Below, one piece after another: positions 45,771-56,275 of a stretch of 64,000 nt of DNA. Position numbers and translations under genes: made by a program. The notes under the pieces are model-generated. The model did not search any database, was not told where the DNA came from, and saw only the letters and a program-made list of their open reading frames with translations. The first letter of the stretch is position 1; every line of letters starts with the position of its first letter. The stretch is from Eledone cirrhosa (Eukaryota), in NCBI GenBank assembly GCA_964016885.1, contig OZ024740.1:396800001-396864000 (forward strand), in the 5' to 3' direction.

Positions 45771-46859
45771 TGACAGCACCAAGTGCGACGCATTGCTCTA
45801 TATTTCATTATAAATGGTTATAGGGGATCAGCCTATGTTTATGCAGCAGTATTTCAATACACATATATGTACAGGTGATCTTATCTGCATGGCTATTTAT
45901 ATTTTTATCTCTGTATTTATCTATGTGCATTTGCTTGGTGCTTGTTGTTGGCCCCAAGTCAACTTTGATTAAGCAGACTTATGAACAAAAGTGTTCAAGC
46001 TATGACCATCCTGCTTTTGTTTTTCAAATATAGCATCAATATGTCCTTCATTTCTTTAAGATGGCAGGGTGTGATTTGACAGATTATCATTATTGTACAG
46101 ATACTCTACCATGGACTATTATATTGGAATTGGAAGGATACAGATGACGTTGAGTGCTTGAACCTAATTATATTATTGCTTAGTGATTGGTGCGTTGCAA
46201 AGGCAACCCCAGTTAGTCAAGAATTTATAACATTGATAAAAAAAGAATATATATTTCTAAAAGTTTGTGTATGTCTCGTTTATTCTCCTCTCTCACTTTT
46301 GTGTAACAATTTTTTGTTCCTCCCTCTCCTCCTGTCTCATTTCAAACTGTGTATGTTTTACCTCTCTTCCCACTACTCATTTGCTCTTCTCTATTGCTAT
46401 CTATTCTCTTTTATAAACCCCCTCCACACTTTAACTCTCTTCCTTTTCCCCAGGTGCTCAGTTGTTCTCATAATGAACACTCTCTATAGTTATGTATTTA
46501 TTGTACCCTTTTTTATAACTCTTCCTTTTTTCTTTCTCCATACTTTGGAACATTTTCTTTAGTTGCCATTTAACCAATTTATCATATGTATTAAGTTTTT
46601 TCATTAAAAAGAAAAAAGACAATATGTATGACCGATGAGACTGATATTGTTGATGTTGTTGTGGTAGTGGTAGTAATGTTGGGGTGTTGTAGTGGTGTGT
46701 TTTGATGGGTTGTTGGTGCAGTGGTGGTGGTGTGGTAGAGGTGGTGTTGTGGTGGTGTGTAATTTGTTGTGTATTGATATGCTAGGTGGTGCTGTGTTAT
46801 GTATCTTTTAATTATTATTTGCTCCGTCATAAGTGGAGGAAGCGTCTCTGCCCAAGACT

Positions 46860-47165
46860 TTTGCAGTTCTCCTGCGACTGATGAAATGGAAGCTGTTGAT
46901 GTTCAGTTTAAATTGTTGCAAGTTGACTCCAGCATGAAAGACATATGCAGAGAAAGAATTACAAAGGAGTGAATGTCTGGTGAGGAAGAACTGTGTGTAA
47001 TGGTTATTGCATGATATGGAGAGTTGGTCCCAATATGGGTGATGAAAGTAGAAGAGGTGAGAGAAAGGAGCACCTGAACGAAAGTGGCCTGAGGTTAGTC
47101 TGTTCTGAGGAGCAGATGCCATTGAAGTAGCAATAGAAATGTATGTCAGAGGCTGGAGCATATTT
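46860..47165 (-). mobile_element. Decayed CR1/Jockey-group LINE C-terminal fragment
   Basis: HPY...NHYTQFFLTRHSLLCNSFSAYVF...NLQQFKLNIN resembles the FF.RT..LWNSLP..VFP...NL..FK C-terminal motif. Confidence 0.55.
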
Positions 47166-47956
47166 GTCAATTATGCCAATCATAAATTAATATAATTAAT
47201 ATAATTAGTTCAGGGCCAGAGAATCAAACTCTCTACCCACACACAATTGTTTTTCTCACTATTTAACGTATTAGTGTACATTCTATTTTCCTTTGGTTGG
47301 TATCTTAATGATACTGGCTTAATTAAAGCATTGAATAAATGGGAAAATGATCGAAGGTATATCGGTCATATCCAATGACTTTGTTTCAGTATTACTATAT
47401 ATATATATATAACATGTATATATATCTGTGTTTATGTATATATATATGTGTGTGTATATATTTATATATATCTTCCCTCTGCCTTCTAGTCAGGGCCGCC
47501 ATCATACAGTGCAAGCAATCTGGCTTTCCTTTTCTCCTCTAGCATCACTTTCTCAACCTTTAGCATCCAGTCATGCTGCAATCACACTGCACAAATGAGC
47601 TGGCTTTCTCCTCTTATCTCCTAACCTTTAGCTTGGTAGAACCAAAATCGAAGCAGATAAGCTGATTTTCTCTAGTCCTTTCCATTTTTCTGAATTAACC
47701 AAACCTCATTTTTGACATTTCTATTAATTTGTTTTTATTACAATGTTTACCAGTCATTTTCTTGCTCTAACCTTTTGCTATAGCATTTCCGCATCCCTTC
47801 CCCCCTCCTCTGTCCACCACTGTTTGTCAGACATGGACTTGCAACCCTCCTCTCCACCACATTCCCACCTGCTGCTTTTCACACCTTCACAATCACTCTC
47901 CTACATCAATAATGCCAATTTGCTCCTGAGCTTTGTAAGCTCTTGAGACAGCAGAT

Positions 47957-48216
47957 CATCTAAGATGGGAGGGAATCTAAATTACAAATGACCTCCTGGG
48001 GCAGATGTGGATCTCAAACCTGAAATGAAAGTAGCCCATCTAAGAGAGCAGTAACTTTGATTAAAAATGACTGCACAGGGCTGATGTGAACTCTGCAAGC
48101 CATGGTGGCAGCAACCCATCTAGGAGGGCAGTAACTCCAATTAAAAACGACTGCATGGGGCAGACATGTGCTCCATAAACCATAGTGAAGGGAACCCATC
48201 TAGGAAAGTAGATACT
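47957..48216 (+). repeat. Four diverged 80-bp tandem units with conserved predicted RNA structure
   Basis: CATCTA(A/G)G at 47957, 48037, 48117 and 48197 (exact 80-bp period); see findings. Confidence 0.85.
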
Positions 48217-48855
48217 CAAAATAAAACCAGAGACAGGGTGGAGAGGAATTTTAAGCTTGGTAAGACAACATCTCTAGTACCGGTGGCATGAATAATACAC
48301 CCAGTCAACACTATAAAGTGGTTGGTGATAGGAAGGGCATCCAGCCAGAATAACCCTGCCATAAACATGAAAAATAAGACAAGTATGATTCTCAATAATT
48401 GTATATACAGGACTAACACTAGTCATGTTAATGCTGCACATGGTAGTGGGTGGCTAGAGTAGCCATGTGTGAGAACCTCTCGACCGTCATCAACCAATCG
48501 CATAACCCTTTTCCCTTTCAGATACATATAACTTCTACCCAAGGAAGTAACACCTGGCAAGGTACAATCTCAGGACTGCCACCCTCAATGTTGGTACACT
48601 GAAAGGTAAATTGGGTGAAATTGTGGAGCTGCTAGAGACAGGAGAAGTGGATATATGCTGTGTACAGGAGGTGAGATGGATGGCTGACTCAGCGAGACTT
48701 ATGACAGGCAAACAGCATATATACAAGCTTTACTGGATAGGAAATAACGATGGGGTAGGAGGTGTAGGCATCTTACTAGCTGAGATAAAGTGATAGAAGT
48801 AGTTAGAGTAAGTGGCAGTATTATCAAGCTTAGATTAGCAGTAGAAAATAATTGT

Positions 48856-49036
48856 TTCTACAATAGGCACAAGGCCAGCAATTATCCCAGTGTATTACTG
48901 GTACTTTATTTTATCGACCCCCGTTAGGATGAAAGGCAAAGTTAACCTCGACGGGATTTGAACTCAGAATGGCAAGAGCCATACCTCTATGCGTCAAAGC
49001 ATGGCATCCGACCCTCTACCGATACTGCCAATTCAC
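48856..49036 (-). mobile_element. SINE family A inserted in the RTE endonuclease region
   Basis: 13-bp TSD AGAAAATAATTGT at 48843-48855 and 49037-49049; reverse-strand B-box-like GAGTTCAAATCC. Confidence 0.9.
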
Positions 49037-49737
49037 AGAAAATAATTGTGACAATTACATCTACCTATGCCCCACAGGTAGGACTGAGTAAAGAACAAAA
49101 AGAGAGGTTCTATGAGGAACTTTTACAGACAACTTCAGGTACCAATGAAGGTGATCTTATCATTATGGCAGGCGAATTCAATGGACATGTGGCACAATAC
49201 CAGGATGGATTCAGCGGAGTTCCTGGTGACTATGTTTATGGCTCAAGAAATGAATATGAATTGAGGCTCCTGGAGTTCTGTGACACAAATGAACTAATCA
49301 TAGGCAACACATATTTCAGGAAACCAGCCAGTCAGCCACTTGATCTCATATCAATCATGCAAATACAAAAAGCTAATTGATTACTTACGCATAAGACAAG
49401 ATAAACGGACTAATAAATACTAAGGCCTTCCCTGGGGAAGAATACTGAGTTTGCATGGAGTTGAGGGAAAAGCTGGGTTTAAGAGGAATCCAAGGTGGTG
49501 TGCAGGAGAGAAGACTGCGTTGGTAAGGACATATGATGCGCATAGACAATGAGTGCTGGGTGAAGAAGTGCCAGGAAATCCCAGTGGAAGGAAGTTGCAG
49601 TCAAGGTAGACCAAGAAAGACCTGATCAGCGGTGGTGTGAGCTGACCTCAAATTGCCGAGACTCACAGAGGAGATAATAGCATACATTACATACATATAT
49701 AAACATGTATATGTGCCTCTCTTTATATGTATGTGTT

Positions 49738-49806
<69 letters not shown>

Positions 49807-49839
49807 ATGTTATCTATCTATCTATATATATATATATGA

Positions 49840-50370
49840 GGGTCATGGGGGAAAAGTTGTCCGACACTCCTTCCAGTGGGTCCTATCAGAAGGGGCCATT
49901 TCCAACTGATCCAGCTGGATCCCCAAGTGATCTCCTGCCAGTTGGTTTTGCCCATAACATCTGTCCAGCAATTCTTTTCTGAAACATTCTAACCACATGC
50001 CCATAATATCGGGTCTGTGACCGCTCAATTTGGAGAAGTAGCAGCTCTACTTGCAGTAATTCTCTCAGCTATGAGCTATGCATTCTATCGAGGAATGTTA
50101 CTCCAAACACCCTTTGAAGGAACCCCATTTCAGCTGCTTGTATTCATGATCATATTCTTTCTGTCATTAACCAAGATTCCCGACCATAGGTAAGGGTTGG
50201 CACGAATACTGAATTGAAGATATCAAATTTGGCCTTTACACCTATGTCCCTTTTTCTGATGACAATGCTGAAGCTGCCGCATTACTGCATCAGCTCCTGC
50301 AATTCTTGCACCTAATTCAACTTTCTGCTTGTCATCACTCGTGAACACGACCCCAAAACTTCTCCATCTG
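49840..50370 (-). mobile_element. Decayed RTE (Expander/REX3-like) LINE 3' fragment
   Basis: Minus strand reads GVVFTSDD...VFVPTLTYGRESWLMTER...QAAEMGFLQRVFGVTFLDR...IERSQTRYYGHVVRM. Confidence 0.8.
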
Positions 50371-50974: not shown

Positions 50975-52163
50975 ATAGCTAACCTCTTTATGGTATGGTG
51001 GGACAGAAGACTTAAGGAACAATTAAATGACAATTTTATAACCCTGACTATGTACTCCCACTACGTAGATGATATAAACATAGTAGTAAAAACACCCCCA
51101 CAGGAGAACAGTTAGGAATTAGAGAAGAACACCATGGAAAGCATCCAGCAAATAGCTAACTCCATCCACCAAAGTATTAAAGTTACTATAGACTACCCAA
51201 CTAAACACCCCAACCATAGATTACCCATATTAGGCACAGAACTCTGGTTGGAAACTATTAGTAATAGAACGCAAATCCTCCATTCACATTATGCCAAACC
51301 AATGACCTCCAAACTCAGCTGTTTTGGATCACATAAACTCAGCTGTTTTGGATCACATAAAAATCAATATACTGATTGCGGACTTAGTAAGAGTGATGAG
51401 GAACATGTCCCGCATGTGCAACCCCAAAGAATTAGAGAGACACATACAACACTTCATCCACCACATGCAGTTCTCTGACTACAATCAGAGAGACAAGATC
51501 AGGGTATATAAACGAGCCAGGACCAAATGGGCAAAGATTGTAGAAAATTATGCAAATGGGATTTGCGCTATGTATGTCTATGAATAGAAAGGATTAGGAA
51601 TAAGGCAAATAAAATCAACTCATGGTATGATAGCAATAAATACCAGAGTGTAATGTTCGTCAATACAAACCCTAGAGGCGAACTAGCTTACAGATTTAGA
51701 AGGGCCCTAGACAAGCTGAAATTAAACATTAAGATAGTTGAAAGACCAGGTATTCCCATAAAAACCCTAATTAGTAAAACAGACCCATTTCAAAGAACCC
51801 CTTGCACAGATAGGAAATTCATAGTCTGCAAGCTAAGCCCACAAACTAACTGCAAAACTAGGAACGTAGTATATAGTATAAGATGCACTGAGAAACAGTG
51901 TAGGAATAAGAATATATCATACATAGGTCAACCAGCCCTTAGCATAGGAGAAAGGATAAGTGAACACTGGCGAGAACTCCATGATGAGAAAAACTCATCA
52001 GTACTCCACCAACAGGCCAAAGTAGAACATAGGGGCACATTAGAGAACATAGAAATAGAAATTATATCCACACACAGAAAAGATGCAAGGCTTAGACAAA
52101 TCACAGAGGTGACAAACATAAAAGAACAACTAAAATTAAACAGAAAACATGAGTGGAATACCA
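50975..52163 (+). mobile_element. Penelope-like element: RT C-half plus GIY-YIG endonuclease, frameshifted
   Basis: IANLFMVWWD...HYVDDINIV (RT catalytic motif), HYAKPM, DLVRVMRN, then CKTRNVVYSIRC...YIGQ...ERISEH...LNRKHEWN (ORF 51653-52213). A 24-bp tandem duplication sits at 51311-51358. Confidence 0.88.
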
Positions 52164-52547
52164 ACATCATCATCATCATCTCATCATCGTTTAACGTCCA
52201 TCTTCCACGCTAGCATGGGTTTGGACGGGAATTTTCCCACTTGGGATGGTTGTCTTGCTCGTATAGGACAGTCTGGCAGGTTTTCTACAGCTGGATGCCC
52301 TTCCTAACACCAACCACGTTTACAGTGTGGACTGGGAGGTTTTTACCGTGTTACCTACACGGCCACATTACAGTGTGGACTGTGTGTTTTTTTGTCATGA
52401 CACCTACACACCTCATTTGTTTTGGACTGGATGCTGTGGTACCAACATAACTTTACATTGGAAGGGGTGGTGTGGATGGGGTGGGAGTAGTGGGGCAGGG
52501 TGTATTTTTGTTAGAGGTGCCTACTAACTGTAGGTTTCGCTTTGTAC

Positions 52548-55500
52548 TTAGGCAAGGCGGGTCTTCTGTATTACCGTGTAGCACCAAAGATCTTGGTCCA
52601 GTGACATTGTCTTGGAGAGGTGTAAGTGTGTGAGGTCGGAATTTAGCAGGTCGTCCCAGGTTTTTCTGGGTCTGCCTACTCCGTGGCTACCGTCTATTTT
52701 TATCGTCCTGCACTTTTTTATACAGCTGTCGTCTTTCATGTGCATCACGTGACTGTACCAACGTAGTCTTCTCTCGAGTAAACAACATCTGATCCCTCTT
52801 ATTCCTAATTTCTCCCTTAGTACGTTTATGCTTTGCCGTTCACGTATATTACTATTACACATCCAGCGGAGCATGCAAGCTTCATTCCTCTCCAGTCTGC
52901 GTATATCCTCTGCACACAATGCCCAGGTCTCACTGCCATGCAACATTGCTATTCGTATGCAGGCATCATACAGCCTGCCTTTCATTTTTAGTGAGAACCC
53001 TTTAGCGGCCAATAGTGGTATAAGCTCTCTGAACTTTTTCCACCCCGTTCTGACTCTAGCTACTGTACTTTCAGAGCACCCTCCACCACTGCTGATTTAG
53101 TCACCCAGGTAACGGAAGGTGTCCACTATTTCTATAGAACCATCTGTGCAATGGAATGAGCTAGTATTCTGTGGGCACTTGCTGCTACTTATTGCACCAG
53201 AGCACTGGCCACATAAAATTTTTATATTCTTAGTAAGCTTACCTGTGATCCCACTACATCTTTTATGCACCCATACTTTGCATTTGGGTCATAAAATGGA
53301 GTTTCTGCCTACGCCTTTCCTACACACTGAGCATGGCCATTTCCCAGATGGGACTGGTGCCCTATTTTCCTTCCTACAAACTAGAACTTTAGTCTTAGAC
53401 AGGTTAATTTTAAGGCCTTTTGATTCTAGGCCATGCTTCCATATTTGGAATTTCTTCTCTAGTTCGGCCATTGATTCAGCTATGAGCATTAGATCATCTG
53501 CGTATAGGAGTTCCCATGGGCAGCCGCTCTTGAACTACTCTGTTATAGCCTGAAGGGCAATAATAAATAGGAGGGGGCTAAGGACGGAGCCCTGATGAAC
53601 ACTAACCTTTACGCTAAACTCTTCACTATATTCGTTGTTAATTCTAACCTTGCTGACTGTTTCTTTATACATGGCTTGTATAGCTCTCACAAGCCATTCA
53701 TCTACACCTAGTTTTCTAAGAGTCCACCAGATAATGGAGCGGAGGACTCTGTTAAAGGTTTTCTCCAAGTCAACAAAAGCTAAGTATAGGGGTTTACTTT
53801 TAGCTAGGTACTTCTCCTGTAGTTGTCGTACAATAAAAAGAGCGTCTGTGGTACTTTTACCTGACACAAACCCGAACTGCATTTTATCTAGATCAATTCG
53901 CTCTCTGATTAGTTGCGCTATTACTTTTTCTGTGACCTTCATGACCTGGTTGATTAATTTAATGCCTCTATAGTTACCCCTATCTAGAGCATCTCCTTTA
54001 CCTTTGTAGCAGTTAATGATGATGCTGCTACACCAGTCCTTCGGAACGACCCTATTCTGTATGACTTGGTTTACTATCCGGGTGACCATAGTGTGTCCCA
54101 CCATTCCAGAAGCTTTCAGCATTTCAGCAACTATTTCCGTCTTCATATCTTTGATTGCCTTACTTATTATACTACCTTCAACTAACACTGCTGGTCCCTC
54201 TATTGGATCGATGTGGGGGAGACTGTCTTTCTCCCATTTATTTTCCTCATTTAGTAGCCTTTCGTAGTGACACTTCCAAGCTACCTTCTTATCAGTGTCA
54301 GTGATGGCAAGTACACCATCATCATTAAGGACACACTTCTCCCCGACAATATCACTGTTTTCCTTGATACATTGCCTAGCAATCCTGAACACCTCACGTT
54401 TTTGGTCCTCGGGTTGTAGAACATGCTTGAACTTTCTTTCCTCTGCTTCCCTTCTTGCGAAGTACACTTGTCTCCGAGCTTCCCTCCTAGCCACTTGATA
54501 GTCTTCTCTACTTCCCCCATCCTGCCATACTTTCCAAGCCTGCTTTCTGGCCTTAATTGACTCCTCCACCTTACTGTTCCACCACCACGTTACTCTCCTC
54601 CTGCCTATAGGCCTGCTCCAGCCACAGACATCATCTGCTGCCTTCAGCAGGTTAGCTTTCAGGAATACCCACTGTTCCTCTATATTGTACGACTCTAATT
54701 GCTCTTCCTTACTGTCAAAAGCATCAAGTAATATGCTTTTGAATTTATTACTGGCTGTGGGATCCTTTAGATTCCATATTTTTCTTCTGAGGCTAGTCCT
54801 CCTCTGTTGTCGAGTACATCTTGTCCTGACTACGAGATCGCTGACTATGAGTCTATGTTGGGAGGTGCATTCTTCATGGGGGAGGGATTTAGTGTTTACG
54901 ACAGACACTCTATCATGTCTTCTGGTAAGGATATAATCTATCTGACTGGCGTGTTCCCCTGATCTATAGGTGATCAAGTGATTGTCTCGTTTTTTAAAGT
55001 TAGTGTTACAGATAGTTAGGTTTTTTGCGTCACAGAATTCCAGGATTCTGGCGCCTTCCTCATTTCTAGTACCAAACCCATAGCCTCCATGGATTCCATC
55101 ATAGCCGTCACAATATTGTCCAACGTGACCATTTAGGTCGCCAGCAATAATTATGTAGTCACTGTCGGTTATTTGGGAGGTCGTGAGCATCAATGTCTCA
55201 TAGAATCTGTCTTTTATAACGCCAGGCTGTCCGGATTGGGGTGCGTATGCAGATATTACTGTCACAGTAGTTCTATTTAGAACAAGTCTTATTTTAATTA
55301 TTCTGTCGTTCACTCTATTTACGTCTATTATCTTATCTACCCATTTTTCTGCTAACATGATTCCTACCGCACCCAGCCCATTGTCATTTCCCACCCAGAA
55401 AAGCTTATAGCATCGTTTTTTACCCCCAATGAATCTAGCAGATGCACCCCTCCACCTGGTCTCTTGGATACAGCAAAAATCAATCTCCTTACGTTCAAGC

Positions 55501-55793
55501 ATTTCTACAACCTCGCTAGAGCGACCTTTTAAGGTGCCTACATTCATGGGGTACCAACTCTGAAGTTTTGGATTGCGTTTGGTGGGTGGGAATGGTGGGG
55601 TGCGAGGAGAGGTGAGGGGGCTGGAGTTGGGGTTATGTTGGCCATCCGCGGCCGGAACAAAGAGGAGGAGTCCTTGCCTTTTCGTTCGGCAGCATGAGGT
55701 GAATTTGTCTTTATCTTTGGCATTGTCACTCAGTGTCCAGATTTTTTCAGACTCTCCAGAATTTCCTAGTCCATCCATCATATCGAAAGGCAA
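52548..55793 (-). pseudogene. APE endonuclease-reverse transcriptase ORF of the RTE LINE, with a PHD-like finger
   Basis: One reading frame of about 1080 codons broken by three stops (53535-37, 53289-91, 53097-99). Motifs NVGTL, CCIQETRW, SAYAPQ, GDLNGH, QIDYIL, NYRGI, FVDLEK, HQGSVLSP, YADDL, GRPRKTW. Confidence 0.95.
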
Positions 55794-55928
55794 CCGGAAG
55801 AAGTGATAGCATAGGCTATTGACTTATGATTGGTCGAAATAATAATAATGGTGGTGGGTGGGAGGGGTATGGGGGTAGTTAGCGAGAAGGTTTAAATAAA
55901 ATCCTCGAAATTTGGGCATAATTGGACA

Positions 55929-56275
55929 AGCATATAACAGTAATAAGCGAATAATATTTAGTACAACCTGACAGAATTATAGAATAGCATATAACAGTAA
56001 TAAGCGAATAATATTTAGAACAACCTGACAGAATTATAGAATAGCATATAACAGTAATAAGCGAATAATATTTAGTACAACCTGACAGAATTATAGAATA
56101 GCATATAACAGTAATAAGCGAATAATATTTAGAACAACCTGACAGAATTATAGAATAGCATATAACAGTAATAAGCGAATAATATTTAGTACAACCTGAC
56201 AGAATTATAGAATAGCATATAACAGTAATAAGCGAATAATATTTAGAACAACCTGACAGAATTATAGAATAGCAT
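55929..56275. repeat. 57-bp minisatellite, 6 copies with alternating variants
   Basis: AGCATATAACAGTAATAAGCGAATAATATTTAG(T/A)ACAACCTGACAGAATTATAGAAT with order T,A,T,A,T,A. A single-unit copy with the same left flank lies at 56588-56697. Confidence 0.97.

Follow-up and report, generated by a model that had tools for sequence, protein, structure and literature searches.

Tandem leader units of an RTE-type retrotransposon in Eledone cirrhosa are predicted to fold into a covariation-supported double pseudoknot

Introduction

The RTE 5′-UTR domain described by Kojima (2018; PMC5786205) corresponds to the Ceph-SINE domain’s 3′ half and is presented, in the available parts of that paper, as a conserved sequence without a structure: the words ‘pseudoknot’, ‘hairpin’ and ‘stem’ each occur 0 times in its main text. 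According to the same parts, the domain also occurs in Ingi-3_AC and in several SINEs, and AviRTE has two domain regions. The conservation of SINE ‘bodies’ and RTE leader blocks across phyla has so far been explained there by speculation that the domain binds a regulator.

Small folded RNAs at comparable positions or of comparable shape are known from other systems. The R2 protein binds a pseudoknot in the 5′ UTR of its element (PMC6765202, available sections) and a pseudoknot in the 3′ UTR (PMC12222951, available sections). Exoribonuclease-resistant RNAs (xrRNAs) have so far been characterized only in viruses, as far as the available text of PMC8374639 goes. Here, we describe tandem 80-nt units in an octopus genome, how they compare with these systems and what their fold may be for.

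Results and discussion

The tandem units lie in the leader of a decayed RTE-type LINE

The window (the whole stretch of 64 000 nucleotides analysed, positions 396 800 001 to 396 864 000 of contig OZ024740.1) contains an array in which the anchor CATCTA recurs at 47957, 48037, 48117 and 48197, a spacing of exactly 80. Offsetting indels lie inside unit 1, so that the S2 3′ strands of the first two units begin 78 apart (47992 and 48070). Ungapped identity is 37–58 of 80 positions between units and 17–28 between units and flanks, and TRF gives a period of 80, 2.5 copies and 72% for the array. The initial annotation had read each of three units as an H-type pseudoknot with stems S1 and S2, and all six stem pairs are found exactly as it gave them (Table 1). 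A knot of this type (S1 of at least 4 and S2 of at least 5 pairs) arises in 1.6–4.8% of 500 dinucleotide shuffles per unit, rates that are not independent of one another because the units are homologous.

The placement of the array in an RTE 5′ leader likewise stands, given the homologous copies and the APE frame downstream. The array is not at the 5′ end of the leader; the LINE is of the APE–RT kind, and the array occupies the middle of its 5′ UTR. APE begins about 290 nt past it, and the APE+RT ORF follows the leader directly, without an ORF1. Judged by this layout, the window element is an RTE-type LINE. The APE of one family copy (L214) matches single proteins of about 1000–1060 aa with APE and RT domains. 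The middle of the window LINE, RT core included, is deleted, and the window copy is an ordinary dead relic.

Other repeats share the window. A 44-bp satellite with a strong G skew occupies 1–27840 (some 638 copies at 93% matches), and a 57-bp tandem repeat (6.1 copies, 98% matches) lies at 55929–56275. A second, better kept APE–RT LINE at 52548–55823 on the reverse strand has a 762-aa open stretch (RVT_1, E = 1.8e-17); its APE is 53–57% identical to that of the array element, and no convincing module B (see below) lies upstream of it. Open frames at 51116–52213 on the forward strand, for which no Pfam match was found, resemble a Penelope-like element in what we take to be its RT end and GIY-YIG domain.

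Table 1. Features of the array and its host element in the window
Feature	Position	Strand	Basis or remark
5′ leader of decayed RTE-type LINE copy	47601..48543	+	homology to L002 from 47601; 29/29 other loci over 48050–48350
Incomplete first module B, having lost its 5′ part in window copy	47925..47964	+	HMM matches; intact in other copies
Module A1, H-type pseudoknot: S1 47963–66/47975–78, S2 47968–72/47992–96	47963..47996	+	
Module B1: P1 47997–48001/48012–16; P2 48003–07 plus 48009–10 with 48035–41, 7/7 paired	47997..48042	+	
P3 of module B1: 48018–20/48030–32, one private mismatch	within 47997..48042	+	window sequence
Module A2: S1 48043–46/48055–58, S2 48048–52/48070–74	48043..48074	+	
Module B2, decayed: pairs left P1 5/6, P2 5/7, P3 2/3	48075..48122	+	
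Module A3: S1 48123–26/48135–38, S2 48128–32/48150–54	48123..48154	+	
Module B3, decayed: pairs left P1 6/6, P2 4/7, P3 2/3	48155..48202	+	
Module A, last variant: S1 retained across family, S2 down to about 3 pairs	48203..48232	+	57 ‘last’ modules parsed
Terminal module B: loop GGAGAGG 48240–46 with 48269–75, 6/7 paired in window	48233..48277	+	29 copies
Separate downstream RTE leader domain, common to SINEs of same genome	48297..48355	+	blastn to L391, L392
Broken APE endonuclease frame	48566..49445	+	Pfam PF03372, E = 3.8e-5
SINE-like insertion interrupting APE frame	~48845–49040		blastn pattern
3′ end of RT reading frame	49461..49676	+	tblastn 44% identity, E = 1.6e-16

Each unit is predicted to hold two pseudoknots

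The hairpin that had been noted after each H-type pseudoknot is present, but it is only half of a second, three-stem pseudoknot, the one that bears the significant covariation. Its loop is complementary to the 7-nt strand just before the next S1, past a 3-bp hairpin, and the array is therefore written as (B–A)n–B. Module A is the H-type pseudoknot already annotated; module B consists of P1, a loop of 7–8 nt fully paired as P2, and P3 between the two P2 strands. What had been called a partial, degenerate fourth unit consists instead of two parts: the variant of module A that comes last throughout the family and, behind it, a terminal module B, which in the family reads GGAGAGG/CCTCTCT with GTC/GAC as P3; first-type B has ACC/GGT (six copies). 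S2 of module A is GGAGA/YCTCC in first-type units versus GCAGT/ACTGC internally, where it is exact in 31/55 parsed units. A nested alternative, in which ACTGC would pair with GCAGT of the next unit, was rejected, since the first-type units show the 3′ strand altered in step with its upstream loop.

Module B resembles the xrRNA-LT of Tombusviridae/Luteoviridae in pairing an apical loop with a downstream strand (P2) and in having RNA ends near P1, and the tandem flaviviral xrRNAs in its tandem copies. It differs from xrRNA-LT in its extra P3 hairpin and in lacking the J1/2 internal loop, the J1/2 G and the invariant AGY, the linker before P2b being AA, AG, CA, CG or UA. With the HDV-like ribozymes of R2, RTE and L1Tc it shares a place in the 5′ leader of a non-LTR element, the order P1–P2–hairpin–short linker–P2 and copies that start at the first base of P1; it differs in lying internally, in surviving inside SINEs and in having no Rfam match. 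P2a is directly followed by P1b in 35/35 aligned units, which is at odds with the nested double pseudoknot of the HDV type. A C-N-R string before P2b would suit a novel ribozyme with self-cleavage immediately 5′ of P1 and HDV-like connectivity without P3/L3. The absence of P3, L3 and P1.1, the features of HDV-like ribozymes, speaks against one, as do the Rfam searches: cmscan returned nothing relevant and no ribozyme family, twister, hammerhead, pistol and hatchet included, either in 46000–50000 of the window (E ≤ 10) or in 20 better-kept loci (E ≤ 1). The initial annotation, which by eye had matched the fold to neither HDV-like nor twister ribozymes, was right in this.

Covariation is found between families and not within the window’s family

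A first search of the 3.0 Gb genome gave 1539 candidates, of which 40 were scored, and an exact 22-mer has 146 matches. The family set comprised 240 loci (222 after duplicate removal) with 427 unit matches; there are 1–5 units per copy in 24 full-leader copies and six in L020. The extra units would likely stem from slippage or unequal exchange and may be partly redundant. At two loci (L133, L146), pieces of the unit have formed local satellites (15 copies with a period near 44 nt, five copies with one of 177 nt).

Paired CpG positions in P1 and P2 vary independently across the family copies (odds ratios 1.0–1.3, p 0.39–0.91), and of 15 pairs tested for association within the family only 32/41 (p = 0.002) and 55/68 (p = 0.04) stand out. 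The differences among family copies are mostly CpG decay. We therefore discarded within-family covariation as evidence for the fold and, as facing CpG pairs decay independently, regard most apparent compensations in the window copy as noise. The compensatory changes first proposed thus hold at the family level for the S2 switch, whereas most of those in S1 and the hairpin are private transitions of the window copy.

Across families the picture is different. A 21-nt degenerate motif matched 29 sites, mostly of other families, in the same genome and at least 121 metagenome loci, at least two of them by chance (L297, L316); it had 0 matches in viral contigs, and APE frames lie downstream of it at four loci (L243, L307, L346, L348). 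In 35 representative units, hand-picked from clusters as well kept, 88.5% of the cells of the 21-pair structure are paired, compared with 25–44% for slid partners. Two-sided change occurs in 12/21 pairs, and the covariation score of this alignment was reached by 0/500 shuffles. Under a tree-aware null (32 rows, the three decayed window rows having been dropped), the top two of 2145 pairs both fall in P2, with a best E of 0.023 over all pairs and E values of 0.0002, 0.008 and, for the third, 0.07 over the 21 proposed pairs. In the same test P1, P3, S1 and S2 gave no significant covariation, in a setting limited by the scan motif, which had itself set some of the bases in P3, P2b, S1 and the A loop; for S1 and S2 this result is partly due to the fixing of their 5′ strands by the scan pattern. 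The larger alignment thus upholds covariation in P2 of module B but not in the two stems first proposed, and S2 outside the window’s family is only GG/CC.

The supplement of PMC5786205, in its available part, offers families that were picked neither by motif nor by structure. Tallied by eye, with AviRTE counted once, 19/20 named families pair all seven P2 positions, using 15 different loop heptamers, and RTE-5_PSi pairs 6/7; in four of the supplement families, S1 switches from GGAG/CUCU to GGGG/CCCU. The covariation between families is real, and the double pseudoknot modelled from it is, in our judgement, very probably real as well. The proposal of a multimerized structured RNA with an H-type pseudoknot is supported at the level of this predicted fold.

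The unit has diverged from the known RTE domain

By sequence, each 80-nt unit represents the conserved RTE 5′-UTR domain in a diverged copy. The window units align with the metagenome units, and these match the available supplement sequences by eye; an HMM built from metagenome units alone finds the window units (best E = 0.0044) and 43/222 family loci. At one locus (L351), the Ceph 5′ motif quoted in the available text of PMC5786205 stands directly before module B. Unit and domain, as far as the latter is described there, share the sequence pattern, a length of about 70 nt, a mid-UTR position and occasional duplication. The window’s family differs from it in a unit of 80 nt amplified to 1–6 copies, an 8-nt loop with a bulged U and an S2 of 5 bp versus GG/CC. 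The domain is used in tandem generally: among the matches listed, 35/146 other-family loci with a B match, mutual relatives included, have two or three. The word ‘uncharacterised’ in the initial annotation therefore suits the fold and not the sequence. The structure and its link to 5′ ends appear to be undescribed: a search of openly accessible papers found no description of the fold.

In a further family (L171, L193, L202), a tandem variant of module B accompanies the downstream RTE domain and has matched P1 and P2 changes of its own. A different multi-stem module, about 110 nt long, lies upstream of B–A arrays at seven loci (L280, L286, L293, L301, L354, L377, L383). It stands at the apparent 5′ end of several RTE families, has swapped GGCACU/AGUGCC and GGCUAU/AUAGCC arms and ends in module A; it has no Rfam match and is a candidate for a true 5′ ribozyme. 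The long leaders of six loci (L276, L283, L303, L307, L376, L386) hold one more small hairpin, the loop of which might pair with upstream sequence; it adjoins a CUGA..GAAA string that does not make up a full hammerhead.

The fold persists behind tRNA heads

In the available supplement, P1, P2 and P3 are all retained, with matched changes, in the consensuses of four Ceph-SINEs that have tRNA heads, where they lie some 150 nt past the head. These four have another small H-type knot ahead of B, so that the order of the initial annotation, an H-type knot followed by the hairpin, recurs. The domain is not found everywhere, being absent from the available IdioSINE2 and Sepioth-SINE2B sequences, and no tRNA-headed SINE with module B was met in the same genome among the 20 of 66 motif matches examined, all of which have another module. 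SINEs of this genome (L391–L412) carry other modules; in the SINE-like loci L393–L412, the Ceph 5′ motif, which is predicted to form a small H-type knot of its own (intact in 18/20), is followed by another module resembling the RTE-derived part of CoeSINE4. Leader modules look interchangeable.

The intact fold behind tRNA heads argues against efficient self-cleavage, against an IRES and against a promoter. A ribozyme cutting before P1 would behead the SINEs of these four families (a general argument made in the available text of PMC5786205). Efficient cleavage would also erase upstream units, but upstream leaders and multi-unit arrays are often transmitted, and the domain lies mid-UTR in most RTEs.

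The 5′-UTR position, together with the support of translation by HDV-like LINE leaders (PMC6765202, available sections), would suit pseudoknots that act like an IRES in bringing ribosomes to the single ORF, or that tether the RNA to them. We hold this to be improbable: the fold is kept with compensations in non-coding SINEs, as represented in the available supplement, and in a short ORF-less family. In the window, moreover, about 290 nt and another domain separate the array from the APE frame, and such a role leaves the 5′ ends of copies unexplained.

Mouse L1 has internal promoter monomers, and the units might likewise be promoter monomers acting at the DNA level, with copy 5′ ends marking transcription starts. 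The number of units varies, copy 5′ ends are in phase, a headless family spreads from G1 and, by eye, some families have loose A/B-box-like strings, all of which would agree with this, as would the regulator binding suggested in the available text of PMC5786205. The long-range matched substitutions nevertheless point to RNA, the B-box-like string is absent from the internal units of the window’s family, and a second promoter behind a tRNA promoter would be redundant, which leaves this explanation with as small a chance as ribosome recruitment. A Pol III or tRNA mimic was rejected: ARAGORN gave no match on seven loci, and the box-like strings are not conserved.

Copies tend to begin at P1

Among the metagenome matches listed, 71 loci belong to the short ORF-less family (about 285–340 nt), 64 of which remained once five that were too short and two duplicates had been dropped. 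Among these listed matches, 41/64 copies start exactly at the first G of P1 and 50/64 within 3 nt, TG repeats in 49/64 flanks blurring the junction by 0–3 nt. One long form (L283) has the upstream leader, and two short-family copies show snap-back duplications of exactly the P1-start end. TSDs were found in 6/11 complete short-family copies, three of them TG repeats, and in 0/3 window-family copies. These data come from one family, mostly from two record series, and a single truncated founder with its own promoter could be the source of the shared start. At three loci (L317, L378, L275), the first 12–20 nt of the element are duplicated at the 5′ junction in snap-back (inverted) and direct form.

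The element 5′ ends that coincide with the first base of P1 in HDV-like ribozymes are thus matched in the short family, and more weakly in the window’s family. There, 116 downstream-anchored loci comprised 24 full-leader and 66 truncated copies, 20 excluded for belonging to another family or for a low score, and six removed on inspection. Of 53 copies ending in the array, 17 end in unit columns 4–15, a range chosen after seeing the data, versus 14% simulated (p = 7e-4; scan-corrected 0.047). In a separate set from this family the figures are 22/36 versus 36% expected (p = 0.002, two rows removed), with 4/34 in earlier units. The pile-up is modest and is absent at terminal B (2/10) and at units two or more upstream (1/12). 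It could equally reflect RT stalling at the S2 helix that abuts P1; stalling at the 3′ edge of B was rejected, there being no peak at columns 49–60.

The exact starts in 41/64 of the short-family copies listed are what a ribozyme cutting at this point would leave, and RTE elements do carry 5′ ribozymes, the TSDs of Perere-3 abutting the cut site (PMC8501958, available sections). Weighed against the SINEs and the missing HDV features, self-cleavage by module B is nonetheless very unlikely, if a shade less so than a role as IRES or promoter. Copy 5′ ends at P1 could also mean that the main job of the fold is to block exoribonucleases independently of protein, as an xrRNA-like ring that stabilizes uncapped or read-through transcripts; templates nested from P1 would result, and the tandem copies would be redundant. 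The coexistence of full-leader (24) and trimmed copies agrees with this, as does the pairing of a hairpin loop with a downstream strand as in xrRNA-LT, viral xrRNAs being tandem too (PMC8374639, PMC7668246, available sections). Besides the xrRNA-LT hallmarks that module B does not keep, such a block alone gives no account of the matched changes in the tRNA-headed SINEs of the available supplement, where it could only yield headless dead ends, and as the main function we consider it unlikely. Somewhat less doubtful, though still speculative, is a broader proposal: module B as a self-sufficient RNA device defining the 5′ end of retrotransposon RNA in RTE LINEs from cnidarians to birds, either as the first cellular exoribonuclease-resistant RNA or as a new small self-cleaving fold, and enabling short elements without a promoter to spread from read-through transcripts.

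A protein-bound handle is the tentatively preferred function

Leaders of coding elements, ORF-less derivatives and elements with Pol III heads all retain the fold at the RNA level, which fits a signal addressed to the retrotransposition machinery on any template. We accordingly lean, with slightly less than even confidence, towards the unit acting in cis as an RNA handle for the RTE protein to grip and, through its first stem, also halting 5′-to-3′ trimming; folding in vivo, protein binding and the nuclease block are what we infer from the data above. The RTE leader domain would fold into the three-stem pseudoknot B and the H-type pseudoknot A, and the RTE protein would grip the folded domain in cis. 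The first stem of this folded and probably protein-bound domain would mark where 5′ trimming halts, so that many templates would begin there, and a halt at P1 would let headless elements spread from read-through transcripts. The R2 UTR pseudoknots are similar in being small pseudoknots in a retrotransposon UTR, with a protein handle as the proposed role here; they differ in that sequence and clade are unrelated, and binding, which we propose for the RTE unit, has been demonstrated for R2. Among the four functions first suggested for the array, an RT-binding site and a nuclease block fit best; the presence of the intact fold in non-coding SINEs with tRNA heads leaves ribozyme and IRES a poor fit.

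With the covariation-backed double pseudoknot, the Ceph/RTE domain acquires a concrete structure of 70–80 nt, and the pile-up of 5′ ends ties this domain to the making or recognition of templates. Such a structure would matter for the question why RTEs so readily give rise to bipartite elements and SINEs, and for UTR design in RTE-based gene writing (PMC13708176, available sections).
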